This document shows positions 3,530 to 60,430 of a stretch of 62,687 nucleotides of DNA, piece by piece. The translations under genes and the position numbers were made by a program. The stretch comes from an uncultured Candidatus Saccharimonas sp. (lineage in GTDB: Bacteria > Patescibacteriota > Saccharimonadia > Saccharimonadales > Saccharimonadaceae): positions 13,272-75,958 of the forward strand of contig CAZEWP010000001.1 of assembly GCA_964516285.1 (NCBI GenBank). Reading direction: 5' to 3'. Numbering within the stretch: the first letter of the stretch is position 1; every line of letters starts with the position of its first letter. The notes beneath the pieces were generated by a model. The model saw nothing but the letters and a program-made list of their open reading frames with translations, did not search any database and was not told the DNA's origin.

Positions 3530-4297
3530 TTAGTGAAATTTTATTTGAAACAGAGTTTCAATATTTTTAGTCGTGGCCGAAGCAACTGCTTCCTCGGAAA
3601 GATTCCGTTGACGACCAAAACACCTAACCACCTCTCTCACATATGTAGGCTCATTTACTTTACCACGAAAGGGGTGAGGGGTCAAGTAGGGAGCGTCTGT
3701 TTCTAAGATTAATTTATCAAGAGGAATAGCCTTAAAGGCCTCTTGTTGAGTTTGGTCTTTAGTGAAAGTGACTAGTCCATTAACACCAAGATATAAGCCT
3801 CGCTTTAAAGCCATCTCAACATTAGCTTGATTATCCGAAAAAGAATGGAGCACTCCTCTGATTGACTGATAGTTATCAAAAATTGGCCAAAAATCAGCAA
3901 AAGCCTCTCGAACATGAAAAACAATTGGTAAATCATATTTTAAGGCTAGCTCAATCTGTTGCTGTAAAACTTTTTGTTGGTTTGCTGGCTCACTATAATT
4001 GTAATGGTAATCTAAGCCAATTTCTCCAATCGCTACCAGCTGGGGATTGTCTTTATTCTCTTTAATCAACTGCTCCAAGTCACCTAGGCCTTGATCGGCA
4101 TAATGCGGATGAACCCCAATTGTCGCAAACAGGTTAGGCTTATTTTTTACAAAAGCCAGCGCTCTTTGCGACTTTTGGTAATCGGTGCCAATACAAATAG
4201 CTCCGCCGACGCCATTTTTACGAGCCCGCACCAAAACATCTTTAACTGGTAAAGGATACTCTAATTCATGAATATGACAATGCGCATCAACTATCAT
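3530..4297 (-). CDS. tatD: TatD-family metal-dependent hydrolase/DNase
   Basis: 255 aa. Starts MIVDAHCHI and has the EIGLDYHY and ETDAPYL motifs of TatD. It overlaps metG by 4 nt. Confidence 0.85.
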   Translation of the reverse strand: MIVDAHCHIHELEYPLPVKDVLVRARKNGVGGAICIGTDYQKSQRALAFVKNKPNLFATIGVHPHYADQGLGDLEQLIKENKDNPQLVAIGEIGLDYHYNYSEPANQQKVLQQQIELALKYDLPIVFHVREAFADFWPIFDNYQSIRGVLHSFSDNQANVEMALKRGLYLGVNGLVTFTKDQTQQEAFKAIPLDKLILETDAPYLTPHPFRGKVNEPTYVREVVRCFGRQRNLSEEAVASATTKNIETLFQIKFH

Positions 4298-13488: not shown

Positions 13489-13516
13489 CAAGTCAGATTA
13501 TTATAGTGCATGTCTG
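13489..13516. repeat. Left arm of a 28/30-bp inverted repeat bracketing the high-GC cassette
   Basis: caagtcagattattatagtgcatgtctg. Its reverse complement equals 14774-14803 except for a 2-nt (at) indel. Confidence 0.9.
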
Positions 13517-13626
13517 TTCGCGCCTAGGAACAGCGAATTATGGCTATACTCTCATTTATAGCTATAGTCCGCTGTTCCTGGAGTGTCCCACAGACAGCGA
13601 GAATTGGATGAAAGGAGGTGCGCTCA

Positions 13627-14730
13627 ATGCGCATCTCAGAAAAAAAATTGACTGGCAGAAGCCAGTCGATTATGGCCCTCGTGGCCAAAAAAAGACGCCA
13701 GATGGCGTCTTTGATCATGGCCCTAGTGGTCGTGGTCGGAATCGGTGGCGGGATTGCTTTATTCAGAAAGACCCCAACCACTACAGCCACCACAACCCAG
13801 CCAAGCCCTGCGACAGAGACCGTCACTCCGGATCCCAAGTTCCAAACGGTCCAGCATTTTGTGGCCGGCGCTAAAAACGCTGGCTGGTCACAAGACCAGT
13901 TGGCCGTAGAGTTTGTCAACAGCAATGCTGACAACTCCACGCCCGGAAACCAGGCGTTCTTGTCTAGTGGTGCTAAAACCACAACAGAACTTCTGGCGTG
14001 GCTCACTGGTAGTAGTCGAAGCGCCGAAGGCACTCGGTTATTAATAACCGAGTACACCGGCGCATCCGCCGGCGAGGTCCAAAACCCAGATTACTGGGTC
14101 GTGGCCCAAGCTAAGGCGGACTTCCGTTACACAGAGATGACTCTCTGGCGCAACGGAGCAATCCACACCCAAGCCGGCAAGGCCGGCAATGTTGGAGATA
14201 TCTTTTTTGCTTTCGTTCCTCCGCGGAATGAGAGCAAAATTGTGTATGTGCGAGGTGGATGTGCAAACCCCACCTTGAACGTTCCGACCCCCAACCAACC
14301 GACGCCGACCACGAGGCCGGCAACGACTCAGCCCCCAGTGGATGAGCCAGAGCCGACAACCCGTCCGTCCAAGCCCGGTGAGACGACCACCAGGCCGTCA
14401 ACCACCAAGCCAGAGCCGACCACAAGGCCAGCCACCACCCCGAAAGCCAAGGACCCCTCAAAAGATATCCTGGCCAATCCGAAGGTGGCGGATTGGAAGA
14501 AAAACGGCGGGGAGTTACTCCAAATCCTTTGGGATCTGGACGCTCCCAATGGCTATCAGCCAGCGCCTCGCGAAGAGGCAAAAGCGAAAGCCGACGCCAT
14601 CAATAGAGCCAACAAGGGGCTCGAGGAACAGCACAGTAGTGCCGTAGCCTCGGCCCCAGTCGTCGACGACAACCAGGGACACGTTGCCGTCACTAAGCCG
14701 AGCGACCCAAATTGGTCGCCCTTCGGCTAA
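13627..14730 (+). CDS. Membrane-anchored secreted protein with Pro/Thr-rich repeat linker (high-GC, probably horizontally acquired)
   Basis: The ATG at 13627 is preceded by AAAGGAGG with an 8-nt spacer; the track starts at GTG 13618. The protein has an N-terminal TM helix (LIMALVVVVGIGGGIALF), an unknown globular domain and EPTTRP-type repeats. The segment is ~60% GC, which produces spurious ORFs in all frames. Confidence 0.75.
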   Translation: MRISEKKLTGRSQSIMALVAKKRRQMASLIMALVVVVGIGGGIALFRKTPTTTATTTQPSPATETVTPDPKFQTVQHFVAGAKNAGWSQDQLAVEFVNSNADNSTPGNQAFLSSGAKTTTELLAWLTGSSRSAEGTRLLITEYTGASAGEVQNPDYWVVAQAKADFRYTEMTLWRNGAIHTQAGKAGNVGDIFFAFVPPRNESKIVYVRGGCANPTLNVPTPNQPTPTTRPATTQPPVDEPEPTTRPSKPGETTTRPSTTKPEPTTRPATTPKAKDPSKDILANPKVADWKKNGGELLQILWDLDAPNGYQPAPREEAKAKADAINRANKGLEEQHSSAVASAPVVDDNQGHVAVTKPSDPNWSPFG

Positions 14731-14871: not shown

Positions 14872-16113
14872 ATGAGTTTATTTTCATATTTTAAAAACAG
14901 CCCTAAACGAATTCTTGGTTTCGTAGTTATGCTTTTAGCTAGCATTGCCCTACCAACCACGATTCTAGCTTGGGGACCAATCAGACCAACCTACACCATT
15001 GAAAAGCCAGCTCCCCATGTTACTTTTAACTCTATCACTAATAACCCAAATTATGGTGATGAGCGAAACTTTGTAACTATCAAGGACGCTAGCAATCAAA
15101 ACGCTGGTGGCTGGGTTGACCAAATTACTGTTCAAGACGGCAAAGAATATTATGTTCGCATGTATGTTCACAACAATGCCGCCGAAAATCTAAACCTAGT
15201 AGCCAACAATGTAACTGCTAAGTTTAATGTTCCAACCTATAATGCGAAAAAAGTTCAAATTGATGGTTATCTATCCGCTGACAATGCCCAACCCAAAGAG
15301 ATTTGGGATCAAGCAGTTTTCGTCAGCGATCAAACCTTTAATTTAAGCTATGTAGCTGGTTCTACTACCTACACCAACAATATCTTCACTGACGGCACCG
15401 CCTTAACAGATGAGGTTATCGGTAACGGTGTCAAACTAGGTTACGAAAAACTTGACGGTAAAATCCCTGGTTGTTTCCAATTTAGCGGTCTAGTTATCTT
15501 TAAGGTTAAAGCCACCACTACTGACTTTAGTCTACAAAAAACTGTCCGCCTAACTGATTCAACCGATCGAGTTTTTAAAGAAAGCGTTAAAGCTAAACCA
15601 GGCGATAAGGTAGACTTCCAAATCTACTTTAAAAACACCGGTGGTACTCAACTTAAAAATGTTGTTATTAAAGACAAACTACCAGCTGGTTTAGAATATG
15701 TCGCTGGTTCATCTAAGTTATTCAACTCTGATGGACTTAAAGACATAGTAGATGGAATCACCACAACCGGTGTTAACATCGGTGGCTATATGCCAAATGG
15801 TGATGCCTATCTAATGTTTACCGCTAAAGTTGTTGCTAACGACAAACTCCCAGTTTGTGGGTTGAATAAACTTACTAACAAAGCCGAAGCTGTCACTAGT
15901 AACGGCACCAAAGAAGATACGGCCGAGGTCTTAGTCGATCGCTATTGTGAACCCGACAAAGAACCTGAACCACCAGTTGAACCTGAACCACCAGTAATTC
16001 CAGAAGAATTACCTGTCACTGGTCCAAGTGATATTGTTTCAGCCTTCTTAGGCCTTGGGTCTCTTGTTACTAGCGCTGGTTATTACCTTAATAGCCGACG
16101 CAACAAGCGTTAA
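14872..16113 (+). CDS. LPXTG-anchored surface protein with DUF11-like repeat domain
   Basis: 413 aa. RBS AAGGAGG, a signal peptide, the KPGDKVDFQIYFKNTGGTQLKNVVIKDKLPAGLEYV DUF11-like segment and an EPEPPV tandem repeat. The C-terminus has LPVTG, a hydrophobic helix and an RRNKR tail. Confidence 0.85.
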   Translation: MSLFSYFKNSPKRILGFVVMLLASIALPTTILAWGPIRPTYTIEKPAPHVTFNSITNNPNYGDERNFVTIKDASNQNAGGWVDQITVQDGKEYYVRMYVHNNAAENLNLVANNVTAKFNVPTYNAKKVQIDGYLSADNAQPKEIWDQAVFVSDQTFNLSYVAGSTTYTNNIFTDGTALTDEVIGNGVKLGYEKLDGKIPGCFQFSGLVIFKVKATTTDFSLQKTVRLTDSTDRVFKESVKAKPGDKVDFQIYFKNTGGTQLKNVVIKDKLPAGLEYVAGSSKLFNSDGLKDIVDGITTTGVNIGGYMPNGDAYLMFTAKVVANDKLPVCGLNKLTNKAEAVTSNGTKEDTAEVLVDRYCEPDKEPEPPVEPEPPVIPEELPVTGPSDIVSAFLGLGSLVTSAGYYLNSRRNKR

Positions 16114-16212: not shown

Positions 16213-18363
16213 TTATTTAACTGGCAACATAAAACCAAAGGTGCTACCCTTGCCCTCGATTGTTTCAAAAATAATCTTACCATCATGAGCATAAATAACC
16301 TTTTTAGCTAAATACAGCCCCACCCCTGAGCCACTCGGCCGTTGTTTTTTAGCGTTACTAGCCCTGTAAAACTTAGTAAACAACTCTTTTTGCTCAACTT
16401 TTGGCACACCAATTCCGCTATCTTGAACCGTAAAAGACACCCATTCACTATCACAGGCTAAACCAATTTTTATCTCACTCTTAGGGTGGGAATAAAAAAT
16501 AGCATTATCTATAAAGTTCATCACCACCTGACGAATCTTATTTTCATCAAGCTCTAACGGCGGCACCTCATCATGACAAGCACAGCTTAATTTAATCTCC
16601 TTTTTTTGAGCCACCATCAACAAACCATCAACCTCAGTCTTAACTAGCTCCATTAAATTAACCGTAGTTCGATCAACCACAAACTTACCTGTTTGCAACC
16701 TAGAAACATCAAGAAAATCATTAACCAACCGCACCATCTTATCGCTACTGATATAGGCATCAGCTAAAATCTTTTTCTGCTGACTACTTATCTTACCAGC
16801 ATCACCATCCGCTAACATACTAATATACCCCTTAATACTAGTTAACGGTGTTCTTAGTTGATGTGAAGCCATACTAATAAAATCGTCCTTAGCTTTATCT
16901 AGCTTTCTTAACATTGCGTTCTTAACCCTTAATTCTTTAATAGCCTCATCTATGCGCTGACGTAAAGTAATATTAAAATCTTGAATTTCTTCAACAGCTA
17001 AAGCATTCTGAATTGCAATTATTAAAGCGTTAGCAATGACGTTTAAAACCTCTAAATCACGGCTAACATAGTTCGACGACATCTTTTCACCAAGACACAA
17101 AAAGCCAATTAAACTACCTTTGCTAGTTAGTGGTAAGACTACTCCAATTTTATTTGTTAATAAAATTTGTTTAATTTCGTCTGTTTCTTCTAATGCTATT
17201 GTTGCTATAGCCCCAGCTTGCTTAGAAAAATAACCACTAATCTTCTCAATGTCTGAATCTACTAATTTCCTATAATTATCTGATCCCACTAATACATATT
17301 CTTTGTTTGGCAAATAAACAACGAAAAAAGCTTGCTCTGCTTTTAGGGTTACTGTTACTTCTTTAACTACTTTTTTTAAGAGCTCCCTCAAATCAGTTGT
17401 CACAGCTAAAGCCTGATTAATCCGAGCAAAAAACTCTTCTGTATTATAGTTGTCTCTATAAAATATTTTATTAGTTACTTTATCAAAAAAGCGCTTTAAT
17501 GGTTGGAATAATAAAACTAAAACCAAGCTAACTATAACATTAGCTATTAACTCTGCTGGGGTTGAACTACCCAGTTTTAAAAAACTAGATAAAACAGCCA
17601 TAGAGCCAATATAGATTCCAGCCATAGTGGCAAGCGATAATGAATAAGTAGCGCTTCGCACAATCGCCATCCGCACATCAAACAAACCACCCTTAAGGAT
17701 ACCGTAAGAAGTTACCCCAACAAAAATTATAGAAAAAAATGGCGTAATAGTATCTACTATCTTAGCCATATTTCCCTTAAACATAGGAGCGATAAAAATC
17801 ATTATCGCTATAGAAGCTGCTGTTAACCCAAAACCAAATAATATATAAGAAATATTGTTTTTATTAGTTTTATTTTTTTTCTTGTAATATAAAAACTTAA
17901 TTATTAATGTAAGGATACCTAAAAAAGCTAATAAATATATAGACCCAAAATACAACCAAGCAATTTCCCCGTGCACCGGTATGGCTGTACCCATAACAAC
18001 ATCAACATTTTTTACTATTTTATCTGTAAAAAATATAACGGGAAAAAGACTTATAATAAAACAGGCTATAAGTAAACAAAATGGTACCAATATTTTTCTA
18101 AATAAAAAGACTGGATAAGTTAAAATAAAAACAAAAAATAAAAACATACCTCCAACCCCAAAAATATCAGTTATTTTGACAGCTGTTAATGGCTGTAACA
18201 CATAATTCGATAAAGCAAATGACACCACCCATCCTGATAAGAAAAAAACTAATATAAAAAAAATTTTATTGTAAAGTTTGCGATGGTTACTTAACAAAAC
18301 AATAATTGACATAAACAACATAACTATCGCCAAAAGTATACTCATGATTACTATAACATTCAT
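16213..18363 (-). CDS. Sensor histidine kinase: about 9 TM helices (HisKA_7TM-like), GAF-like domain, HisKA, HATPase_c
   Basis: 716 aa. H-box SHQLRTPLTSIKGY and G-boxes DSGIGV / GSGVGL. The N-terminal half is polytopic. It overlaps the upstream methyltransferase gene by 4 nt. Confidence 0.85.
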   Translation of the reverse strand: MNVIVIMSILLAIVMLFMSIIVLLSNHRKLYNKIFFILVFFLSGWVVSFALSNYVLQPLTAVKITDIFGVGGMFLFFVFILTYPVFLFRKILVPFCLLIACFIISLFPVIFFTDKIVKNVDVVMGTAIPVHGEIAWLYFGSIYLLAFLGILTLIIKFLYYKKKNKTNKNNISYILFGFGLTAASIAIMIFIAPMFKGNMAKIVDTITPFFSIIFVGVTSYGILKGGLFDVRMAIVRSATYSLSLATMAGIYIGSMAVLSSFLKLGSSTPAELIANVIVSLVLVLLFQPLKRFFDKVTNKIFYRDNYNTEEFFARINQALAVTTDLRELLKKVVKEVTVTLKAEQAFFVVYLPNKEYVLVGSDNYRKLVDSDIEKISGYFSKQAGAIATIALEETDEIKQILLTNKIGVVLPLTSKGSLIGFLCLGEKMSSNYVSRDLEVLNVIANALIIAIQNALAVEEIQDFNITLRQRIDEAIKELRVKNAMLRKLDKAKDDFISMASHQLRTPLTSIKGYISMLADGDAGKISSQQKKILADAYISSDKMVRLVNDFLDVSRLQTGKFVVDRTTVNLMELVKTEVDGLLMVAQKKEIKLSCACHDEVPPLELDENKIRQVVMNFIDNAIFYSHPKSEIKIGLACDSEWVSFTVQDSGIGVPKVEQKELFTKFYRASNAKKQRPSGSGVGLYLAKKVIYAHDGKIIFETIEGKGSTFGFMLPVK

Positions 18364-19094
18364 CTGATATGCTCCATAATAAACAGTCGGTTTTGATTAG
18401 CTTGTATATCCTCCATATGTATAATCCTTAATTTAGACAACTTTGCAATTTTCTTTATTTCTATAAGACTATCATACTGTATTATCCCTCTTTTCGACAT
18501 TATATAGATTTTAAATTGACCCCAAAGCATATTAAAATATTTGGGAAGTCTTTTAAACATCTTGAGTATTACACAAATTTTTTGCATTAAGTTTAAACCA
18601 GACAAATGAGCATTAATAAATTTCACACTATTTGTTTCTTTATTTGGCTTAGGGTTTACTAGTATAATTTTAGCTTTTTGATCAGATAATAATCTGCGCA
18701 CAGAAATTAAAAACTTTTTTTTGTCATTAATAAAAAACAATACATTAACAATAATTATTACATCAAATTTTTTATTTATATTTAGATTATTTAAATCCAT
18801 TTTTATAAAATTAACCCTATCTCCATGAACAGATGAAGCTATTTTTAACATCTCAGAAGATGCATCAACAGCATAAATTCCACCTAAAAAATTATTCTTT
18901 AGAATTTCAGCCTCCAACAACCCACTACCACAGCCCAAATCAAGAATATTTCTAGGATTATAACTCAATGCCATTTTAGCAATTTTTGTATATTTTTCTC
19001 TATGTGATCTTGAATCTGAAGACACAAAATGAAAAGACCTTGCCATTTTATCCCAAACTGTTTTCTTTATTATTTCTTTATTTCTTTTTCTCAT
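18360..19094 (-). CDS. Class I SAM-dependent methyltransferase
   Basis: 244 aa. Motif I ILDLGCGSGLL. Confidence 0.75.
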   Translation of the reverse strand: MRKRNKEIIKKTVWDKMARSFHFVSSDSRSHREKYTKIAKMALSYNPRNILDLGCGSGLLEAEILKNNFLGGIYAVDASSEMLKIASSVHGDRVNFIKMDLNNLNINKKFDVIIIVNVLFFINDKKKFLISVRRLLSDQKAKIILVNPKPNKETNSVKFINAHLSGLNLMQKICVILKMFKRLPKYFNMLWGQFKIYIMSKRGIIQYDSLIEIKKIAKLSKLRIIHMEDIQANQNRLFIMEHIR

Positions 19095-19100
19095 AAAAAC

Positions 19101-19901
19101 TTATTTATTATAGATAACAAATTTTTTATTATAAAAATCCATAAGAGTTACAGCAGGAGCTGCCAATAATTTTTTATCTTTTTTAATATAAAAACTCACT
19201 AAATCTTCTAGCAATACTAGGTATATAGCAATCGCATGGCACCAACTAGGAAATACTTTTATTTTTCCCTTTATAACATCCCTGACAATTTTATTATTCG
19301 CTTCAACTGGTAAAATTGGAAATTGAATTTTAATAATCTTTTCCATAGAAAATTTACCATCTTCAAAAAATAAATCACCATAATGTGGGCCATCAGGATC
19401 TATATTCATCGAACTAAGCATACTACCAGAAATCTGAGCTGTCATAACCCATTTTTTCTGTTTTCTTGCAGCTTCTTGTAATTCTATTGATCTGTCAATA
19501 GAAAAAAATTCTATAGCATCTATTACAACATCACAACCCTCTATAAAACTATCCACATTATCTTTATTGATTCCGTAATCCCATACTTTTAATTTTATAT
19601 TAGGATTTATTCTCATTAATTCATCCGCAACAGCCAACGCCTTGTTTTTTCCAATAGTATCAATATAACAACCAAATTGTCTATTAATATTTGATATCTC
19701 AAAAACTTCTGGATCACATATATTAATATTTTCTACACCTAGTCTGACAAGCATGTGCGCCATTGACCCACCTAATCCACCAGCACCTGCAATAGCTACT
19801 TTCAGATTTTTTATTCTTTCTTGCTCCTTTTGAGTAAAAATACCAATATTTCTTTGAAACATTTCTTCATATTTATATTTCATATCTTTATTTTTAACCA
19901 T
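19101..19901 (-). CDS. ThiF/MoeB/HesA-family E1-like adenylyltransferase
   Basis: 266 aa. Nucleotide-binding loop VAIAGAGGLGGSMAHMLVRLGV followed by DPEVFEISNINRQ. Confidence 0.75.
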   Translation of the reverse strand: MVKNKDMKYKYEEMFQRNIGIFTQKEQERIKNLKVAIAGAGGLGGSMAHMLVRLGVENINICDPEVFEISNINRQFGCYIDTIGKNKALAVADELMRINPNIKLKVWDYGINKDNVDSFIEGCDVVIDAIEFFSIDRSIELQEAARKQKKWVMTAQISGSMLSSMNIDPDGPHYGDLFFEDGKFSMEKIIKIQFPILPVEANNKIVRDVIKGKIKVFPSWCHAIAIYLVLLEDLVSFYIKKDKKLLAAPAVTLMDFYNKKFVIYNK

Positions 19902-19919
19902 AGAATTAAACCTTTCTTT

Positions 19920-20849
19920 CTAAATAAATAATAACATAAATCTATAAAATTTTAATTTTATAGGAACTGTTAAAGATCCTAGGTAATATTTTGTTCCACC
20001 AATTCTAATTAAAAAAAGTGATAAAGGCCAATATTTAATCTTTAAACGATTAAAAAGGTTTTCGTCTATACAAGCTACTGTAATTTTTTTGTTTTTAATA
20101 CAATAGCTAATAACCATTCTATATAGCCCTTTTGCAATTTTTTGACCAGGAAGAGCAGCTAAACTTCCAATCTCAACGACTCTTTCGCCCTCTTTATACA
20201 ATCTTCTGCTTACTTTATTTTTAATATCAAAATTATTAATAACCGGCAAGCCTAGCTCTGAGTTATTAATTATCCTGATAACTCCAACTATTTTATCTTG
20301 CTCCTTAGCAATAAAATATTTTGAATAACGATTAAACTTATCTTTCTGTATGACATCCTTTTGATTCTCAGACAAATATCCGACCTCAACATATCTATTA
20401 AAAAGAAAATTTCTAGCTTTCAAAATTTCCTCGCCCCGAGCTTCCTTATAGATAATAGTTTTTTTATAAGCCTTATTGCCCGTCTTCCATATTATTAAAA
20501 ATGTGGTCACAAACAACCAAACTACAACTAAAACATATAACCACCACGGTAAATTTTTACCAAATATAAAAATATAAAAATAGGGAGCAACCCAGCCAAA
20601 ACGATTAATCACCAACCCTTTAATAAAACCTTCTTCCGATATAAGTTTAGTTATGTCTATTTTTTTTGTTCTAACATATTCTCTTTTGTAATACTGATAT
20701 CCACTCTTTATCATTAGGTATTCTCCAAAATAATAAATTGGTATCGTTATTAAATATAAACAAATATAAAATATTGGGTTTACATTATAAACATCTACAG
20801 CTTGATTAAAAAGATGACTAATAAAATTCATATATTCTATATTATACAT
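19920..20849 (-). CDS. Membrane-anchored GNAT-fold N-acyltransferase (FeeM / N-acyl amino acid synthase-like)
   Basis: 309 aa with 3-4 N-terminal TM helices. The C-terminal region (DKIVGVIRII...LPV...VVEIGSLAALPG) resembles the autoinducer-synthase-like GNAT subfamily. The call is from memory of the family pattern. Confidence 0.5.
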   Translation of the reverse strand: MYNIEYMNFISHLFNQAVDVYNVNPIFYICLYLITIPIYYFGEYLMIKSGYQYYKREYVRTKKIDITKLISEEGFIKGLVINRFGWVAPYFYIFIFGKNLPWWLYVLVVVWLFVTTFLIIWKTGNKAYKKTIIYKEARGEEILKARNFLFNRYVEVGYLSENQKDVIQKDKFNRYSKYFIAKEQDKIVGVIRIINNSELGLPVINNFDIKNKVSRRLYKEGERVVEIGSLAALPGQKIAKGLYRMVISYCIKNKKITVACIDENLFNRLKIKYWPLSLFLIRIGGTKYYLGSLTVPIKLKFYRFMLLFI

Positions 20850-20886
20850 AAGTAGTGTTGTTTTAATATAAAACTTATCTATGTTC

Positions 20887-21417
20887 TTATTTAACTATAG
20901 CTTTAATAATCGCAGGGCTTTCTAAGCATTTATTTATTACTTCACTGAAAGATACTTTACGGCTAATGAGCTCTTCGACTTGATAGGTTTCTTTTTCTTG
21001 ATAACTACATATTTTATAATATTCACGAATCCTTTTTCCAAACTCATAACCATTATCTATATCTTTTGACACTTCTGGTGGTAGTTGAAGAGGTGAGCTT
21101 AAGTTATAAATCCAGTGATCACCGTAAAATATAGATGCACAACAAATTAAATTGTATATTCCATCAATCTTCTTTAAGCCACCCTCTAACCCAATAGCAA
21201 ATAAAATATTATCTTTATGGACGTCTTTAAAAGCATTTTTTGCTCGATTTTTAGCACCAGTGATAGTTTCTTTCTCTGTAGTTGGCTGATCTGACACACC
21301 AGAATCTACATCACATTTTATAATTGAAAATTTATAACCTTTTTTATCTAGACATTCTGCTAAGATATTATATTTATCTTGACTGGTTGACCCAATAGCT
21401 GTTTTTAAAATTTCCAT
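20887..21417 (-). CDS. DUF84 / YjjX-like non-canonical purine NTP phosphatase
   Basis: 176 aa. DSGVSDQPTTEKETITGAKNRAKNA matches the YjjX signature (SGV.EQP..ET..GA.NR). Confidence 0.7.
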   Translation of the reverse strand: MEILKTAIGSTSQDKYNILAECLDKKGYKFSIIKCDVDSGVSDQPTTEKETITGAKNRAKNAFKDVHKDNILFAIGLEGGLKKIDGIYNLICCASIFYGDHWIYNLSSPLQLPPEVSKDIDNGYEFGKRIREYYKICSYQEKETYQVEELISRKVSFSEVINKCLESPAIIKAIVK

Positions 21418-21468
21418 AATTAAACTCTCCTTATGTCATACATTCTTTTTTAGTTAAAGTTATAATAG

Positions 21469-21500
21469 AAAAAATCCCTACCATAAAATACAGTAGGGAT
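21469..21500 (-). terminator. Rho-independent terminator/attenuator downstream of the small peptide ORF
   Basis: On the minus strand: atccctac-loop-gtagggat followed by tttttt. It lies between the peptide ORF and the DUF84 gene. Confidence 0.65.
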
Positions 21501-21594
21501 AGTTTAGTTTTTAACAGAGAGGTTACTTTAATTTAGTTTGATAATATTATCTTTAACTAGTTTTTATAAATACCACCTTACATTTGTATTGTAA

Positions 21595-21744
21595 TTACAC
21601 TTTTTCTTTAAAAGAACTACCACAACAATTTTTACCAGACATAAATATAACTTTAGTAATTGATTCACCAGAGGGTAGAGTTTCTTCTTTGCGAACAGGT
21701 TCCTGAAGATTTTTTCTCTTAACTCGTGTTTGAAGAACTTTCAA
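21595..21744 (-). CDS. Unannotated 49-aa peptide, candidate RiPP precursor: MKVLQTRVKRKNLQEPVRKEETLPSGESITKVIFMSGKNCCGSSFKEKV
   Basis: Translated by hand. A TTG start is preceded by AAAGGAG with a 9-nt spacer, and the codon before the TTG is a stop. It sits 46 nt downstream of the radical SAM/SPASM gene and is followed by a terminator. It is below the ORF-track length cutoff. Confidence 0.6.
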   Translation of the reverse strand: MKVLQTRVKRKNLQEPVRKEETLPSGESITKVIFMSGKNCCGSSFKEKV

Positions 21745-21790
21745 TTAAAACTACTCCTTTCTGTAAGATTTTTTATATCATCTAGAATTA

Positions 21791-23107
21791 TTATTCTAGA
21801 TTTAAACATTTATAATATTTTTGAAGAATATAACTTGTTGTGTCAAATAATATATCAGAACACACCTTCTTGCCAATAAATCTTGCCTTTCGACACCCTC
21901 CTTTACAAATTGGTAGAATCTTACAATTCAAACAATCATTATCATTAAACGGATTAGTATTAATAAAACGATTATACCTAGAGAAATCCTTTTGTGATGC
22001 AAAACCAAAACGCACATTGCCAACAGCTTCCTCTTTTTTCATGCTTTGAGAACACATAAACAAATCTCCGTCTTGATCAATCATGAAAGATTTATCAAAA
22101 TCACATTCGCAAAAATTATAAGATATACCTTCATCAAAAGAATTTGTGATAAAACCCATTTCTTCTGCTCTTTGATAAAGAAATGAAATATTAGCTATGG
22201 GTGATTGTTTTTTTATCTTTTCAGAGAACATTTTTCCAGGACTTCTTCCGTCAGTATGTTCATAAACCAAACGAAAAATTAAAACACAACGTTCTTTAAT
22301 AGCATTAGGTATTCTTTCTAACATAGTTGGTATACTGGCATAATTATCATCAGTTATGTTAACTCTAAGGATTGATGCAACATCAGATTTAGTTTTTTTA
22401 CAATAGTTATTAAAATTTCTAATAATAGTATCAAAAGTCCCATGCCCAGTATTTTTTATAAAGCGGTATGTATTATGAATATCTCTGTCACCATCCAAAG
22501 TTACTTGAACACTTTTAATGTGTAGTTTTTCGATCTGATTAACAAAATCTTCATCAAGCAATACTCCATTTGTAACAAGACTAGCCACATATTCAAATTT
22601 GTATTTATTACGCAATACATCAATCTTCTTTGTTAGGCGTTGAATAGTATCTTTCGAAAGTAACGGCTCACCACCATACCAAGTTAAATAGAGTGATTTA
22701 ATGCCAATAAGCTGACTTTCTAACCATATAATATAATCTTCTTCAGTTTGCCGACTCATAAATTTACCTGTTTTGGATTCAAAACAGTAGGGACAATCAC
22801 AGTTACAAGCAAGATTCGGTAAAATAGTATGTCGTAATATACTTGACGAATACAAACTCCTACTCCATTCAAGTTTAAAAAATTCAAGCTCATCCATACC
22901 ATCATCAATAATAAATAATTGTTCTTTTAATTGGCTAATCATTTTAAGGCTCTCTGCATCAGACACCACAAAATTTTTTTCTATTAATCGCTGATACAAA
23001 ACAACTTCTTCAAGAGATAGCTCAACTATATTTTTATATAGGGTGTTATAGATTATTCCACGACCATCGGGTAAATTAACTAGAAAGTTGTAATATGAAA
23101 GCTTCAA
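21791..23107 (-). CDS. Radical SAM / SPASM-domain peptide maturase (anSME-like family)
   Basis: CNCDCPYC contains CX3CX2C. The C-terminal SPASM motif is CLNCKILPICKGGC (CX2CX5CX3C) with upstream Cys/Gly elements. The ~100-aa N-terminal extension could be an RRE. The preferred start is TTG 23107, with RBS AAGGAGAGG 6 nt upstream; the track start is 23140. Confidence 0.85.
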   Translation of the reverse strand: MKLSYYNFLVNLPDGRGIIYNTLYKNIVELSLEEVVLYQRLIEKNFVVSDAESLKMISQLKEQLFIIDDGMDELEFFKLEWSRSLYSSSILRHTILPNLACNCDCPYCFESKTGKFMSRQTEEDYIIWLESQLIGIKSLYLTWYGGEPLLSKDTIQRLTKKIDVLRNKYKFEYVASLVTNGVLLDEDFVNQIEKLHIKSVQVTLDGDRDIHNTYRFIKNTGHGTFDTIIRNFNNYCKKTKSDVASILRVNITDDNYASIPTMLERIPNAIKERCVLIFRLVYEHTDGRSPGKMFSEKIKKQSPIANISFLYQRAEEMGFITNSFDEGISYNFCECDFDKSFMIDQDGDLFMCSQSMKKEEAVGNVRFGFASQKDFSRYNRFINTNPFNDNDCLNCKILPICKGGCRKARFIGKKVCSDILFDTTSYILQKYYKCLNLE

Positions 23108-23166
23108 CTTTATCCTCTCCTTTTTGTTAAAAATCAACAAACCTTCTTTCGGGTTTATCTATACTA

Positions 23167-23196
23167 GTTATACACCTATAACAGTAACCTTGTCAA
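23167..23196 (-). promoter_or_regulatory. Promoter TTGACA-18 nt-TATAAC for the radical SAM operon
   Basis: Read on the minus strand. Its -35 box overlaps the -35 box of the divergent plus-strand promoter. Confidence 0.5.
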
Positions 23197-23218
23197 ACAT
23201 ATGTAGAGACTATATAAT
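23190..23218 (+). promoter_or_regulatory. Promoter TTGTCA-17 nt-TATAAT for the nucleoside phosphorylase gene
   Basis: Read directly. Confidence 0.55.
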
Positions 23219-23276
23219 ATATTTTGTTAGATATAACTTTTTTATAAAACACCTAATAGAAAGCGTTAGATAGTGT

Positions 23277-24011
23277 ATGATAACCTTTGACCCTAATAAA
23301 CAAGCCATTTTTGATCCACCAACTTTAAATTTAGACAGGCAGGTGGATAAAGCAATTTTAGTTTTTGATGATGAAGTTTGGGAAGATTATATTATTCCTA
23401 ATAAAGATTTAGTTAGTTTTGATGTTAAAAATTTAAAAGGCCGAGTTTTCAATACTTTCCGTTATCTAGAACATCACGGGCAAAACGTTTTATTAGTCTA
23501 TCCATCGACCGGAGGGCCAGCTTCAGCTGGTGACCTAGAACTTTTGATAGCTAGTGGTGTTAATAAAATAGTTGCTTTTGGAACTTGTGGAGCGATGGAT
23601 AAAAATATCCCCAAAAACACGATTATTTTACCAACTAGCGCTATTCGAGAAGAAGGAGTTAGCTATCATTATTTAGAACCTACTGATGAGATAGCTCAAG
23701 AGCAAAATTCAATTAACGCTATGAAAACAGTTTTTATTAAAAAAGGTGTCGATTATTTAGCTGGTAAAGTTTGGACAACTGATGCAGTTTATCGCGAAAC
23801 AGTTGGTAAAAAAGAAGCTTTTAAATCAAAGGGCTGTTTAGCAGTTGATATGGAACTGGCTTCTCTATTAGCGGTGGCTAAATTTCGAGCTATTAAATTT
23901 GCTCAGTTTTTGATCACGGATGATAATATTGATGGTGTCAATAAAAATAGCAGAGATAGAAATTCTAAAGAATTATTAAATCTTGCACTTGAAATAGTTA
24001 AATTATTATAA
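23277..24011 (+). CDS. PNP/UDP-family nucleoside phosphorylase
   Basis: 244 aa. STGGPASAG, AFGTCGAMD and VDMELASL are motifs typical of the uridine/purine nucleoside phosphorylase family. Confidence 0.75.
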   Translation: MITFDPNKQAIFDPPTLNLDRQVDKAILVFDDEVWEDYIIPNKDLVSFDVKNLKGRVFNTFRYLEHHGQNVLLVYPSTGGPASAGDLELLIASGVNKIVAFGTCGAMDKNIPKNTIILPTSAIREEGVSYHYLEPTDEIAQEQNSINAMKTVFIKKGVDYLAGKVWTTDAVYRETVGKKEAFKSKGCLAVDMELASLLAVAKFRAIKFAQFLITDDNIDGVNKNSRDRNSKELLNLALEIVKLL

Positions 24012-24289
24012 CTGAATTAAAAAACTGTAATTTTTTACATACATCGTGAGATAAAGATTTTGTGCTAAATAATAACTATAAAACACGATTACAGATTTTA
24101 AGCCGTGGATTAATTATTGTTTTTTAAATACTTTCCAATAATTGTGATATCCACCATATCAGTATTTAACACTAAAAACTATAGTTAAAGACGCCATAAA
24201 AAATCTTTAACTTTTTAAATTAAGTTATAAAATTCAACATTTACCCATGATTGTGTTACTATAAATTTATTACTAAATAAGTATTTATA

Positions 24290-25861
24290 ATGAAAAACCA
24301 AAAAACACCGAAACCCCAATCACTTCATCATCTATTTGAACAAAAGCGTAAAGAATTTGGAGATCGCCCCTTTATTTGGGATAAATGGCATAGTGAGGAT
24401 TTTACCCCGCATAGCTATAAAGAGATTATTACTGATATTCAAATCGTAGCTAATTATTTATTATTAGCAAAATATAAAGACCAAAGAGTTGTTTTGTTCT
24501 CTGAGAATAGTTATTACTGGTATGTCTGTAATATGGCGATTACTGGCTATGTTGGAATTTCGGTGGCGGCTAATAAAGATTGGCAAGAATATGATTTAGA
24601 AAATGCTTTAAAAGTTGTTGGAGCAAAATTAGTAATTTATTCAGCTAAAAACGCTGAAACAATTGAAGAGCTTCGGCGTAAGTATAAGAATATTGTTTTT
24701 ATTTCTATGGATAAAATTGCGGATATTATTAAACACAAAAGAGAAGAATCACCAGTGGTCAATAAAAAACTACTAGCCGACAATGCCCAAGCTGGCGATA
24801 AGCTATGTCAAATTATATTCACAACTGGATCTAGTGGCCTACCTAAAGCTGTGCCGATTTCCTTTAATAATATGGAACCTTGTTATGACATGATGCTTAG
24901 TCGGCTTCCTTTTACGGCTAACGATCGACACTACCTGTTTTTGCCACTATCTCATGTCTTCGGTAATATGGCGGCCTTAGTTTCTTTCCGTCAGGGACAT
25001 AAACTATATCTCTGCTCAGATACTAAAGCTGTTAAAGAAGAACTTAAAGTTGCCAAGCCAACCATTGTTTGTGGTGTGCCTTTATTTTTAAACAGAATCT
25101 ATGATGGCCTAAATGAATCAACCGTTCAAACCATTAATCGCTTGGCTAAACTTACCACTCCACTGGCTAAAATTGGAATTAATGTCCGTAAAGTTGTTTT
25201 TAAAAAACTCTACAAAGCTTTTGGCGGTAATCTAAAGTATTTCATTTGCGGAGCAGCCCCTTTAAACCCTGATATCAAGCAACTTTTTTTGAATGTCGGG
25301 ATTGATTTTGTTGAGGCTTACGGTATGAGCGAGACATGTGCTTTTATCACTATGGAAAAAAGAGGTCAACAAATTGCTAATTCAGTGGGAACTCCTTATG
25401 ATGCTGTTGATTGCAAGATTATTGATAAAGATAAAAATGGGGTTGGCGAAGTAGTTATTAAAGGGCCAAATGTTTTTGCCGGCTATTACAAACAAGGAAA
25501 AATTGATAAATCAGCTTTTGATAAAAAAGGCTATTTTCACACTGGTGATTTAGGTTATTTTGATAAGCAAGGCCGACTCTTTTTAACTGGTCGCAAAAAA
25601 CGCTTAATCCTAACCTCAAATGGAGAAAATGTTTCACCTGATGAATTAGAGGGCTTAATTGCTAAGCACCTAAAAGCTAAAAATATTAAAGTTTTTGCCA
25701 CTGACGATGGTATTGCCACCATTATTTATCCATTAGAAAATGATGGGCGAGCTAATGATGAGTTTAAAGCTATTATTGATGAACTTAATTTAGATTTGCC
25801 AAAATTTAAACAAATTAGAGTAGTTAACATTAATCGCAGTAGCGAGATGAGTGTTAAATAA
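24290..25861 (+). CDS. AMP-forming acyl-CoA ligase (long-chain fatty acid-CoA ligase-like)
   Basis: 523 aa. AMP-binding core IFTTGSSGLPKAV, YGMSET, GYFHTGDLGYFD and GRKKRLI. Confidence 0.85.
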   Translation: MKNQKTPKPQSLHHLFEQKRKEFGDRPFIWDKWHSEDFTPHSYKEIITDIQIVANYLLLAKYKDQRVVLFSENSYYWYVCNMAITGYVGISVAANKDWQEYDLENALKVVGAKLVIYSAKNAETIEELRRKYKNIVFISMDKIADIIKHKREESPVVNKKLLADNAQAGDKLCQIIFTTGSSGLPKAVPISFNNMEPCYDMMLSRLPFTANDRHYLFLPLSHVFGNMAALVSFRQGHKLYLCSDTKAVKEELKVAKPTIVCGVPLFLNRIYDGLNESTVQTINRLAKLTTPLAKIGINVRKVVFKKLYKAFGGNLKYFICGAAPLNPDIKQLFLNVGIDFVEAYGMSETCAFITMEKRGQQIANSVGTPYDAVDCKIIDKDKNGVGEVVIKGPNVFAGYYKQGKIDKSAFDKKGYFHTGDLGYFDKQGRLFLTGRKKRLILTSNGENVSPDELEGLIAKHLKAKNIKVFATDDGIATIIYPLENDGRANDEFKAIIDELNLDLPKFKQIRVVNINRSSEMSVK

Positions 25862-44695: not shown

Positions 44696-44773
44696 TGGGG
44701 CGAACGATGGGGTTCGAACCCACGACCTTCGGATCCACAGACCGACGCTCTAACCAACTGAGCTACGTTCGCC
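44696..44773 (-). tRNA. tRNA-His: tRNA-His (anticodon GUG) with encoded G-1 and CCA
   Basis: GGCGAACG.../...CGTTCGCC-CCA: the extra 5' G pairs with discriminator C73. The anticodon loop contains GTG. Confidence 0.85.
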
Positions 44774-44968
44774 ATATTTTGATGCTGGTGCCCTTTTGGT
44801 GGAAGTATAACAACCACTAGGCATAAATTTATAGGCAGTAATAACTACTAACTAGTTAAATTATACTACATTTTTTATATTTTGCGTTAAAAATTTACTA
44901 TTTTTTGTATAAAAAGATAAAAATTAAAAATTTTATGTTACAATAGTTATGAAAGAAGGTAGATAAAT

Positions 44969-45757
44969 ATGACTTATGAAGAAAGACTGAAAAAATTATT
45001 AGGAAATAATGACCCGTTTTGGTATACCACAATAGATAATTTTGTTAGAACAACATACGAAGATAAAGAACAAGCAATTAGTGATTTAGAAAATCTTGCA
45101 AAAGATAATGCTAAATTTAATGAATTTACAAAACAAATCATTCAGAGAAAAGATAATTTAAAAAGTGTAAAGGAAGAGTTTTTAAATTTCCAAAATCAAG
45201 ATATACAACGTGCAACAATTGATATGGCAAGAATGATGAATTATAAAATGCATGCTGAACAATTATATATTCCTATTTTAAATGGTTTTCAAGTTCAAAA
45301 TGACAATAACCCACAAACTATATTATTGGCTTCAGGACATGGCTTTATGGAGCAATTAACATCTGATGGGTACATAGAAGATGGACAATTTGAAAAAAGA
45401 ATTGATTTAGTAATAAATAATACTAAACAATTTATGAAAAATAATGGTTGTGAAAATGTAGAAAATAGTTTTATATATTATAAAGACTATAATAACGGAA
45501 CATTTAATTTTAAATTATATGTTCAAGATATGGTTGTAAATATTGAAAATCAAAAGAAAGTAATTAGAGCATTCATCGCATATTTTGTTGAACCACGAAT
45601 GCACGATTTCTATCAATTAAGTTTAAGTGTCGGTCCATTTACTATGCCAACAGAGCAATTAAAAATTGGCATTATCGACTTAGAGCAAGACCAAATTACT
45701 ATTTCACTTGACAATTTAATGAATACAATAATGGATAATTTAAAATATAAAAATTAA
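44969..45757 (+). CDS. Hypothetical protein (element cargo)
   Basis: 262 aa. RBS GAAGG and an extended -10-like TGTTACAAT upstream. I recognise no family. Confidence 0.6.
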   Translation: MTYEERLKKLLGNNDPFWYTTIDNFVRTTYEDKEQAISDLENLAKDNAKFNEFTKQIIQRKDNLKSVKEEFLNFQNQDIQRATIDMARMMNYKMHAEQLYIPILNGFQVQNDNNPQTILLASGHGFMEQLTSDGYIEDGQFEKRIDLVINNTKQFMKNNGCENVENSFIYYKDYNNGTFNFKLYVQDMVVNIENQKKVIRAFIAYFVEPRMHDFYQLSLSVGPFTMPTEQLKIGIIDLEQDQITISLDNLMNTIMDNLKYKN

Positions 45758-45936
45758 ATTATCAAATAAAAGCCGTGGCACGTTTTGTTGCGTAAGCAAT
45801 GAAAGTGGCGATAGGCTTTCTCTTTTATTTTCATTACGAAGTTTTGAAAATAAAAACATAATTTTGCTTGGCTTTATGCCTTGCTAAAATTATGCTTTAA
45901 AGGGTTTAAAAAGGGAAATTCCCTTTTTCACACCGT

Positions 45937-45966
45937 TATTGGCTTTGCCAATAGCGTAGTGTGTTA
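45937..45966 (+). promoter_or_regulatory. Candidate oriT: hairpin tattggc-ttt-gccaata followed by TAGTGTG/TTA
   Basis: The 10-mer TAGTGTGTTA matches my recollection of the pMV158 MobM nick region (GTGTG/TT). A hairpin immediately 5' of the nick site is the usual MobV oriT layout. Confidence 0.45.
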
Positions 45967-46012
45967 CCATTTCGACAAAATGGTCTTTTACGACGAGTTG
46001 TAGCTCGTTTTT

Positions 46013-49106
<3,094 letters not shown>

Positions 49107-49127
49107 TTATCAACCTCACTTTCTATC

Positions 49128-49176
49128 AAAAAAGAGGGGTCAAAAATACTAGATAACTAATACCTTTGACTCCTCT
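49128..49176 (-). terminator. Long hairpin (12-bp stem with one mismatch) followed by a T-run on the minus strand, between the 91-aa gene and the recombinase gene
   Basis: agaggggtcaaa ... tttgactcctct, read directly. It could instead be a regulatory or recombinase-binding site. Confidence 0.4.
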
Positions 49177-49314
49177 TTAAAATCAAGTATAAACTTTTAA
49201 ATATGTTATATGTGCTTTTAATCATAGAAGTACCTCTCTTTCCCCTTAAAAAGCGATACTGCTTGCTTTTATTAGTTCTATACTATAAACTTTTATTCTT
49301 GATTTGTCAAGGTT

Positions 49315-49590
49315 TTAGTGGGATTTGATATATTCTTCAAAGTCTTTAAACTTAATTTTTTCTTTATAACCATTTATAAAAATGTCATCATAATTATCAA
49401 ATATTAAATAATCAATACCTTTAATTTTAACTATATGAGGTCTAACCATAGCAATATTTGTATTTTTAATACTTTTAACATTTCCATTTGTGATAGTGTA
49501 GTCAACATAAGCAAACCTACAAATCATTTCAACCTTTCTTTTTAATTCTTCACTTATTACAAGTTCTTTAGTTTCTATTGTCATACTCAA
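49315..49590 (-). CDS. Hypothetical small protein (element-encoded; possible directionality factor, speculative)
   Basis: 91-aa ORF at the right end of the low-GC element, upstream of the recombinase. No motif recognised. Confidence 0.5.
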   Translation of the reverse strand: MSMTIETKELVISEELKRKVEMICRFAYVDYTITNGNVKSIKNTNIAMVRPHIVKIKGIDYLIFDNYDDIFINGYKEKIKFKDFEEYIKSH

Positions 49591-49680
49591 TCACTTTCCT
49601 TTCTTAAATAACAAAAAAACTAACTATTTCTAGTTAGCATTTATTACTTAAACTCGAAAAGTTCGAGTTTCCTATCAATC

Positions 49681-49755
49681 TGGTGCGGGTGAGGAGAATC
49701 GAACTCCTCGCTCTTGCTTGGAAGGCAAGTATATTAGCCACTATACGACACCCGC
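49681..49755 (-). tRNA. tRNA-Gly: tRNA-Gly (anticodon UCC), CCA encoded
   Basis: Acceptor GCGGGTG/CACCCGC, anticodon arm CTTGC-CTTCCAA-GCAAG, T arm GAGGA-GTTCGATT-CTCCTC. Confidence 0.88.
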
Positions 49756-60353: not shown

Positions 60354-60430
60354 CGGGGTGTGGCGCAGTTGGCTAGCGCGCGCGGTTTGGGACCGTGAGG
60401 TCGAAGGTTCGAGTCCTTTCACCCCGACCA
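60354..60430 (+). tRNA. tRNA-Pro: tRNA-Pro (anticodon UGG), CCA encoded
   Basis: Acceptor CGGGGTG/CACCCCG, anticodon arm CGCGG-TTTGGGA-CCGTG, T arm GAAGG-TTCGAGT-CCTTT. Confidence 0.88.

Follow-up and report, generated by a model that had tools for sequence, protein, structure and literature searches.

The closest described counterparts of the system reported here are two-gene cassettes for peptides made on the ribosome and modified after translation (RiPPs), in which a radical S-adenosylmethionine (rSAM) enzyme with a SPASM domain acts on a short precursor. CteB is the thioether maturase of thermocellin and carries an N-terminal RiPP recognition element (RRE). The thioether cross-links of sactipeptides and ranthipeptides are formed by rSAM hydrogen abstraction (PMC10114670). 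PapB (freyrasin), NxxcB, and QhpD form thioethers onto side-chain carbons (beta or gamma) of Asp, Asn, and Glu (PMC10114670). Here we describe a minus-strand gene pair from an uncultured Candidatus Saccharimonas sp., studied in a window of 62,687 nucleotides (contig CAZEWP010000001.1, positions 13,272 to 75,958; all coordinates below are window positions). The pair consists of an rSAM/SPASM gene and, directly downstream, a 49-codon open reading frame (ORF) at 21595-21744. We consider it probable that this ORF belongs to a set of conserved RiPP precursors of 47 to 66 amino acids (aa) that are substrates of the adjacent rSAM/SPASM enzyme and may be thioether cross-linked. The two genes would represent a new precursor and maturase family within rSAM RiPP cassettes.

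Saccharibacteria and other members of the candidate phyla radiation (CPR; Patescibacteria) have tiny genomes, for which surveys by genome mining usually list few biosynthetic gene clusters or none at all. The Patescibacteria metagenome-assembled genomes (MAGs) of one survey contained no such clusters (PMC11613949). We found no description of this system in the literature on Saccharibacteria, Patescibacteria, or CPR with ranthipeptide, SPASM, RiPP, or radical SAM, and likewise none of an rSAM RiPP from Saccharibacteria or CPR bacteria. If the reading is true, it adds a previously undescribed modified-peptide family in tiny parasitic Saccharibacteria/TM7. The cassette is compact and is kept across many Saccharibacteria lineages, with a putative substrate gene that is often invisible to gene callers. 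It would offer a candidate modified peptide in host-attached bacteria, where molecules for signaling and competition are largely unknown. The precursor family would be missed by the current Pfam, NCBIfam, and RiPP rule sets, and in this enzyme clade the precursor is to be sought downstream of the maturase.

The short gene downstream of the maturase

The minus-strand frame translates to (M/L)KVLQTRVKRKNLQEPVRKEETLPSGESITKVIFMSGKNCCGSSFKEKV, with a TTG start and a TAA end. The TTG occupies 21744-21742 and is immediately preceded by an in-frame TAA. It is the only sensible start because the next candidate start is Met35. The rSAM/SPASM stop codon is at 21793-21791, and 46 nt separate the rSAM gene from the TTG. 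The first-pass annotation had given the coordinates, the 49-aa translation, the TTG after an in-frame stop, and an AAAGGAG 9 nt upstream, and all of these match the sequence. It had also placed the ORF next to the SPASM maturase, which the 46-nt gap bears out. The terminator that it reported 3' of the ORF was recovered as a 12-bp stem and T-run beginning 94 nt after the stop codon. It is the sole terminator-like site within 18000-24500 and closes a two-gene rSAM-peptide transcription unit (Table 1). A perfect palindrome that overlaps the rSAM stop codon could fold into a hairpin between the two genes, perhaps with a part in processing or attenuation, or might be a repeat that resembles a restriction site. 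No extra precursor copies were found in the window. A promoter scan was uninformative (41 sites versus 40 expected).

Gene callers did not call the ORF on three public contigs with an identical rSAM gene (L018 to L020), and the ORF of L018 is identical. It is present yet uncalled in L031, the closest relative (65% enzyme identity), and in L032. Elsewhere the ortholog is called and, where it has any label, is a "hypothetical protein" (e.g., MBR3138762.1). The earlier description of the ORF as unannotated is thus correct for this genome and some relatives and incorrect for the other genomes.

Taken alone, the ORF is not beyond chance and is weak evidence. ORFs of at least 49 codons occurred on the same strand in 959 of 20,000 mononucleotide shuffles (4.8%) of the 373-nt spacer, which has a GC content of 26%. 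The reality of the ORF follows from the comparison with related loci, not from the ORF itself.

We scanned 185,579 species-representative genomes for the enzyme and retrieved 14 Saccharibacteria loci. The enzyme orthologs (52 to 65% identity) are from Saccharibacteria/TM7 MAGs. Beyond them there are a few relatives at 39 to 45% identity and then relatives at about 36% in other phyla. A tblastn search with the 49-aa peptide gave one match per locus in 14 of 14 loci, directly 3' of the enzyme gene, with E values of 8e-7 to 2e-11 against this small locus set. There was no comparable match elsewhere in the 14 loci. The peptide ORF is also present in L021 to L024, L031, and L032. All 15 loci that were analyzed in detail contain an ORF of 47 to 66 aa that starts 16 to 52 nt after the rSAM stop. 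Reading of the loci gave ORFs of 48 to 66 aa, and eleven distinct loci were read by eye. Each of the eleven has an ATG start aligned with the TTG of the window, preceded at 6 to 10 nt by a Shine-Dalgarno sequence (AGGAGG, AAGGAG, or GAGGTG). A GC-rich hairpin lies 3' of the ortholog in these loci, with a T-run after it in most.

Substitutions point the same way. Among 12 distinct sequences, the mean proportion of synonymous differences (pS) was 0.78 versus 0.36 for nonsynonymous differences (pN), and pN was below pS in 66 of 66 pairs. Differences by codon position were 0.40/0.35/0.61, with the third position varying most. These patterns indicate that the reading frame is under purifying selection and hence translated. 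Pairwise identities of peptide and enzyme correlate across the 15 loci (Pearson r of 0.74; the 105 pairs lack phylogenetic independence), and in L025 a single deletion takes away the enzyme gene along with the 5' end of the peptide gene. The sequences thus indicate that the peptide and enzyme co-evolve and that the short ORF is conserved together with its adjacent, co-oriented maturase.

The ORF could instead be a frame that arose by chance within the 3' untranslated part of the rSAM transcript, or a noncoding RNA element. The shuffle frequency in this AT-rich spacer, the TTG start, and the several gene callers that skipped the ORF are what such an explanation has to offer. It does not account for a frame, start position, Shine-Dalgarno sequence, and length that are kept across loci whose enzymes are only 53 to 65% identical, for the excess of synonymous change in every pair, for the most variable third codon positions, or for 54 called homolog clusters. 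An Rfam scan of the whole window returned seven tRNAs only and no RNA family at the peptide locus. We regard this explanation as effectively refuted by the comparison. The first-pass annotation had named tblastn searches and a synonymous-nonsynonymous comparison as checks, and the lack of a conserved frame in related loci as the outcome that would speak against a gene. The opposite was found. In each of the Saccharibacteria loci that were examined, the conserved frame comes directly after the rSAM/SPASM ortholog, shows the signature of selection, and has its own ribosome-binding site. From these comparisons, 21595-21744 on the minus strand is almost certainly a real gene.

The alignment of 51 peptide sequences gives the consensus MK.IK.NV.R..LV......K[DE]E.L.NGQSITKAI.MGG[KR].CCG[GSA][AST][YFH].E. 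E21, G26, C40, C41, and G42 are invariant in 51 of 51 sequences. M1, L23, S28, A32, and E47 are each at least 90% conserved; E47 is present in 48 of 51 and is otherwise K or G. Position 45 is aromatic in all 51 (Y in 43, F in 5, and H in 3). The shortest orthologs finish in ...CCGGAYVE, and several members stop exactly at the conserved E.

Column conservation suggests a boundary between leader and core at residue 37/38. The proposed leader contains the conserved E21, L23, G26, and S28, the I-T-K-A-I block, and a Gly-Gly-like end. Most sequences have Gly-Gly directly before [K/R]38 (G at position 36 in 42 of 51 and at position 37 in 43 of 51), and the window peptide has S-G. The leader and core layout and the Cys-Cys core described in the first-pass annotation fit this pattern, and its interpretation of the ORF as a precursor peptide gains support from the comparative evidence.

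Two database-wide searches were made for relatives of the peptide. A word-indexed profile search of 5.8 billion proteins gave 54 relatives (90% clusters) of 42 to 104 aa, mostly 48 to 66 aa. An exhaustive hidden Markov model search of 1.84 billion representative proteins gave 14 relatives (50% representatives) from the same narrow family. Scans of the peptide against Pfam, NCBIfam (to an E value of 10), and PADLOC matched no family. None of the 54 clusters contains a Pfam domain, and the relatives had no NCBIfam match. By these searches, the family appears narrow and Saccharibacteria restricted, with no detectable relatives outside the clade. One 351-aa "member" of a peptide cluster (P0299) is an unrelated protein and was rejected as a database artifact.

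The rSAM/SPASM enzyme and its proposed reaction

The enzyme matches the Pfam Radical_SAM domain and the TIGR04085 SPASM domain (50 bits versus a cut-off of 27). It encodes the radical SAM motif CX3CX2C as C112-x3-C116-x2-C119, which is invariant in 33 orthologs. The seven-Cys SPASM pattern (C346...G358-x4-C363, C403-x2-C406-x5-C412-x3-C416, C427) is likewise invariant in these 33. The best whole-length profile matches are Clo7bot (TIGR04334; 227.6 bits against a cut-off of 600), TIGR04463 (211.9 against 525), and CefB (NF038107; 190.8 against 600). Further matches include the geopeptide profile (174 bits) and PapB (107 against 340). The families behind these top profiles all mature peptides that contain Cys. 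The enzyme is below the curated cut-off for every named maturase family.

The AlphaFold2 model, built on the ortholog alignment, has a predicted local distance difference test score (pLDDT) of 82 and a predicted template modeling (pTM) score of 0.80. Residues 12-97 are modeled as four strands, two helices, a short strand, and a helix, with a pLDDT of about 90. This N terminus is predicted to be RRE-like, with the strand-then-helix order of such elements. Foldseek against solved structures gave CteB (5WHY/5WGG) as the best match, with template modeling (TM) scores of 0.61 to 0.68 over 438 to 464 aligned columns. TigE was also matched, and anSME, ChlB, and SkfB came next. Every hallmark of a peptide maturase is present in the enzyme. 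A scan of viral contigs returned only generic rSAM/SPASM proteins at no more than 34% identity and gave no evidence for a phage-borne cassette.

One rSAM ortholog (L009:2776-4074) has CNCDCPYG in place of CNCDCPYC, so that Gly replaces the third radical SAM Cys. Its adjacent peptide gene is intact. The substitution reflects either an inactive enzyme or a sequencing error in the MAG.

More distant relatives of the enzyme have peptides at the same position. L030 (45% enzyme identity) has a peptide 22 nt 3' of the enzyme, MKTICENV...DEYNGEYNLDLISMKSHNCCSSYYD..., that includes NCCSSYY. It retains the N terminus, N-G, CC, and aromatic and acidic residues (MK.I..NV...NG...CC-S-S-Y). This peptide was found by gene context, not by the exhaustive profile search. 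Relatives of the enzyme at about 35 to 36% identity in Leptothrix (L014), "Ca. Methanoperedens" (L028), and L029 have Cys-containing small ORFs directly downstream, which range from three Cys residues up to long CGxCxDC repeats. From these sequences, a downstream precursor and Cys-directed chemistry appear to be the rule in this enzyme branch.

Two or three CGxCxDC-repeat peptides flank the relatives at about 36% identity (L029:1876-2342 and 3857-4114; L014:1492-1907). Two of the three L029 peptides start with a twin-arginine-like SRRQFALFVGLSPLAF signal, and the peptides are uncalled in the L029 gene table. The start suggests export of a Cys-rich modified peptide.

The peptide is likely the substrate of the rSAM/SPASM enzyme, judging from these comparisons. 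In the proposed mechanism, one transcript would cover the rSAM and peptide genes as far as the terminator at 21500-21464, and translation of the peptide would use a strong ribosome-binding site of its own. The approximately 37 N-terminal residues would form the leader, whose E-x-L-x-N-G-Q-S-I-T-K-A-I segment would dock on the RRE-like N-terminal domain. The core, [K/R]-x-C-C-G-x-x-[Y/F/H]-x-E, would enter the active site, where the 5'-deoxyadenosyl radical would take a hydrogen from a residue close by. A thioether ring of the sactipeptide or ranthipeptide type would then be closed by one of the vicinal Cys thiols or by both, held at a SPASM auxiliary cluster. The neighboring nucleoside-phosphorylase-like enzyme would remove inhibitory 5'-deoxyadenosine. 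The thioether step itself is tentative, and we give it slightly less than an even chance.

The main alternative to a thioether is a C-C cross-link on the aromatic-x-E motif. The peptide would still be the rSAM substrate, the bond on [Y/F/H]-x-E would be cyclophane (triceptide) like or resemble the Tyr-Glu bond of pyrroloquinoline quinone (PQQ), and the Cys-Cys pair would serve as an anchor to the auxiliary cluster or in another role. The aromatic residue at position 45 in every sequence and the E two residues on in 48 of 51 speak for this alternative. [Y/F/H]-x-E fits the aromatic-x-x pattern of three-residue cyclophane RiPPs in the triceptide literature. The E is nevertheless replaced by K or G in 3 of 51 sequences, some peptides terminate at E47, and within the core strict invariance is confined to CC-G. 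Cyclophane maturases (YhhB, DynA, and FxsB) are among the weaker profile matches, whereas the strongest matches are maturases for thioethers or Cys-containing peptides (228 bits for Clo7bot versus 73 for YhhB, and the CteB structure). C-C bonds are commonly made by rSAM/SPASM enzymes (PMC10114670). Distant members of the clade have Cys-rich peptides that lack the aromatic motif. We consider a C-C cross-link unlikely.

Several points weigh against a thioether-linked precursor. The evidence for a precursor role is wholly comparative. The peptide has two Cys residues only and shows neither CX3D nor NxxC nor another evident acceptor pattern. Because the enzyme falls below the cut-off of each defined maturase family, homology does not reveal the type of cross-link. 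The RRE assignment is a predicted fold only, with no PqqD match in Pfam. Conservation of the "leader" equals or exceeds that of the "core," an unusual pattern among antimicrobial RiPPs. Leader removal is in doubt because no leader peptidase or exporter was seen near the locus, whether among the called neighbors or among the 20 larger ORFs of the window. Peptidase_C39/PCAT in particular was absent from the neighbor gene tables (about 4 to 10 kb on each side, by locus) and from those 20 ORFs (Pfam). Finally, the phosphorylase-like gene may simply have a housekeeping function in salvage and lie at the insertion site by coincidence.

Some of these points would suit a real small protein that is not a substrate, such as an accessory subunit, a chaperone, a regulator, or a metal or Fe-S partner, with a small molecule or another protein as the true rSAM substrate. 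Conservation is even and high over the C-terminal two-thirds of the peptide, no peptidase or exporter is near, and the module adjoins a gene of nucleoside metabolism. The enzyme, however, has its own predicted RRE-like domain, and its closest relatives are peptide maturases. Typical Fe-S proteins and chaperones are larger than a 48-aa peptide that has two Cys residues and lacks a predicted domain, and the peptide matches no Pfam, NCBIfam, or PADLOC family. In related clades the same position holds classic Cys-rich, precursor-like peptides. We regard a nonsubstrate role as very unlikely and retain the precursor reading.

Gene neighborhood and accessory character

The features of the locus and of the wider window are given in Table 1.

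Table 1. Coordinates of the gene pair, its signals, and other features in the window
Feature	Coordinates	Strand	Remarks
rSAM/SPASM maturase	21791..23140	-	449 aa from TTG at 23140; a 438-aa database call implies a start at 23107
Candidate precursor-peptide gene	21595..21744	-	49 codons plus TAA; TTG start aligned with ATG of orthologs
Shine-Dalgarno AAAGGAG	21754..21760	-	9 nt 5' of the TTG
Proposed leader, residues 1-37 (MKVLQT ... EETLPSGESITKVIFMSG)	21634..21744	-	Column conservation, 51 sequences; boundary inferred
Proposed core, residues 38-49 (KNCCGSSFKEKV)	21598..21633	-	Family motif [K/R]-x-C-C-G-[G/S/A]-[A/S/T]-[Y/F/H]-x-E
Invariant vicinal Cys-Cys codons, residues 40-41	21622..21627	-	51/51 sequences; also in outlier L030
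Palindrome TCTAGAAT-AATA-ATTCTAGA	21781..21800	-	Perfect, 8-bp arms, 4-nt loop; overlaps rSAM stop codon
Intrinsic terminator	21464..21500	-	12-bp stem (21500-21474), 3-nt loop, T-run (TTTTTT)
Nucleoside-phosphorylase-family gene PNP_UDP_1	23277..24011	+	244 aa; only other gene syntenic with the rSAM-peptide pair
Methyltransferase	18360-19094		In low-GC island
ThiF-like adenylyltransferase	19101-19901		In low-GC island
Membrane-anchored FeeM-like N-acyl amino acid synthase/GNAT	19920-20849		In low-GC island
DUF84 NTPase	20887-21417		In low-GC island
Mob_Pre relaxase	46013-47311		In second low-GC block
Large serine recombinase	47238-49103		In second low-GC block

Every locus whose flank is long enough contains the PNP_UDP_1 gene, which lies upstream of the enzyme in divergent orientation or follows the peptide in convergent orientation. 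The closest solved relative of its product is the 5'-methylthioadenosine (MTA) phosphorylase of S. solfataricus (1JDS; E value of 1e-16). It retains the nucleoside-binding motifs GGP, (V)-[E/D]-M-E, and the Asp of [S/D]-D-N. It reached no NCBIfam family cut-off. The phosphorylase-like family far exceeds the rSAM family in size and is not exclusive to the cassette. In Saccharibacteria that lack the cassette, an ortholog lies beside a divergent, unclassified 350-aa rSAM gene (L026:2816-3868), and another lies 1.7 kb from genes for a PqqD-like protein and a 351-aa rSAM/SPASM protein (L027:6431-7781).

HpnG and MqnB trim nucleoside adducts after adenosylating rSAM enzymes. Radical SAM enzymes give off 5'-deoxyadenosine, which is both toxic and inhibitory (PMC6079011, PMC8102628). 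Removal of this by-product by the phosphorylase-like enzyme is therefore a reasonable inference. The gene plausibly serves to clear 5'-deoxyadenosine, and its steady pairing with the cassette hints at local handling of radical SAM by-products. The rSAM/SPASM enzyme, the CC peptide, and the phosphorylase-like enzyme might alternatively form one unit that makes a new peptide-derived product by vicinal Cys-Cys/aromatic chemistry outside the defined RiPP classes. The phosphorylase would then act on the pathway itself, for example by trimming a nucleoside adduct. The product, with no protease or exporter, would serve in the epibiont as a cofactor or a host-interaction signal. We regard this three-gene pathway as improbable.

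The rSAM-peptide pair lies in a low-GC island at 18000-24000, with a GC content of 27 to 31% versus about 40% in the flanks. The DUF84, FeeM-like, ThiF-like, and methyltransferase genes of the island accompany the rSAM gene in no other locus and were rejected as cassette parts. They could be a separate small-molecule pathway. A histidine kinase was rejected as well; it matched near the rSAM gene only in L004, and L032 has a HisKA/HATPase_c gene at a distance of about 3.4 kb from its rSAM gene.

Comparison of L025:4735-5603 with L006:5858-7426 revealed one 1.57-kb deletion between strains whose flanks are 99.4% identical. The deletion takes the rSAM gene in full together with 45 nt at the start of the peptide gene, and about 330 nt of unrelated sequence is present instead. 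In L015 the enzyme gene is reduced to its last 49 codons, and the peptide gene is intact. The low-GC island, the L025 deletion, the L015 remnant, and the L009 substitution therefore indicate, at the sequence level, that the cassette is patchily kept, as is typical of accessory peptide systems.

A second low-GC block (44696-49755; 26 to 29% GC) lies between tRNA-His and tRNA-Gly, and it looks like an integrated mobile element. A resolvase-domain ORF (60419-62266) adjoins tRNA-Pro. The most GC-rich stretch of the window is 13506-14730 (43 to 47% GC), with long overlapping ORFs on both strands. Its 370-aa plus-strand ORF (13618-14730) had no Pfam match at an E value of 1e-5 or below. The next gene (14872-16113) encodes a DUF11 repeat.

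Comparison with known systems

The enzyme is remote from the maturases of PQQ and mycofactocin. It scores 46.4 bits against a cut-off of 265 with the MftC model, and PqqE is not among the best 25 matches. The neighbor gene tables contain none of the PqqB/C/D or MftB/D/E/F partner genes in any locus. The locus also differs from double-glycine/C39 exporter systems, since no C39-domain transporter is among the called neighbors or the 20 larger ORFs of the window.

The phosphorylase-like neighbor resembles MTA phosphorylase and MTAN, salvage enzymes for 5'-deoxyadenosine and MTA through which radical SAM enzymes are freed from inhibition by their product. It is an NP-I-fold enzyme with its nucleoside motifs retained, and its orthologs also occur beside unrelated rSAM genes. 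It differs in that it is below every NCBIfam cut-off, and its family is far more widespread than the rSAM-peptide pair.

The triceptides (YhhB/XyeB-type 3-CyFE) share with this family a conserved aromatic-x-E tripeptide near the C terminus ([Y/F/H]45-x-[E/K/G]47), a short and nonspecific motif. The enzyme scores 73.1 bits against a cut-off of 445 (NF041707) in a match that spans the rSAM core only, and the invariant feature here is CC-G. PapB, NxxcB, and QhpD resemble the system in having an rSAM/SPASM enzyme and, in a short core, Cys with a nearby acidic residue. The peptide, in contrast, has no CX3D or NxxC spacing, and N occurs three residues before C41 in 3 of 51 sequences only. The enzyme falls short of the QhpD cut-off (63 versus 453 bits) as it does of that for PapB.

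Clo7bot, TIGR04463 ("rSAM_vs_C_rich"), and CefB are the best profile matches, and they match over the whole length, including the N-terminal domain. The relatives at about 36% identity, L014 and L029, have CGxCxDC-repeat peptides after the enzyme in the same gene order. The scores are nonetheless far below the respective cut-offs, and the peptide here has a single CC motif in a single copy versus many regularly spaced Cys residues.

The SCIFF/ranthipeptide system (thermocellin CteA/CteB) shares a two-gene cassette, a precursor of about 45 to 50 aa, and a C-terminal Cys core. It also shares an rSAM-SPASM enzyme of about 440 aa, with an RRE in CteB and a predicted RRE-like domain here, and has no dedicated protease or exporter; CteB is the best structural match. 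The enzyme here scores 71.7 bits against the SCIFF maturase cut-off of 425 (TIGR03974). The peptide has 2 Cys residues versus 6 in about 45 residues, and it has no SCIFF (TIGR03973) or other NCBIfam match at an E value of 10 or below. The precursor is downstream of the enzyme here, and the host is a member of the Saccharibacteria rather than the Clostridia. The system works like a SCIFF/ranthipeptide-type two-gene cassette, yet it stands outside all of the named families tested.

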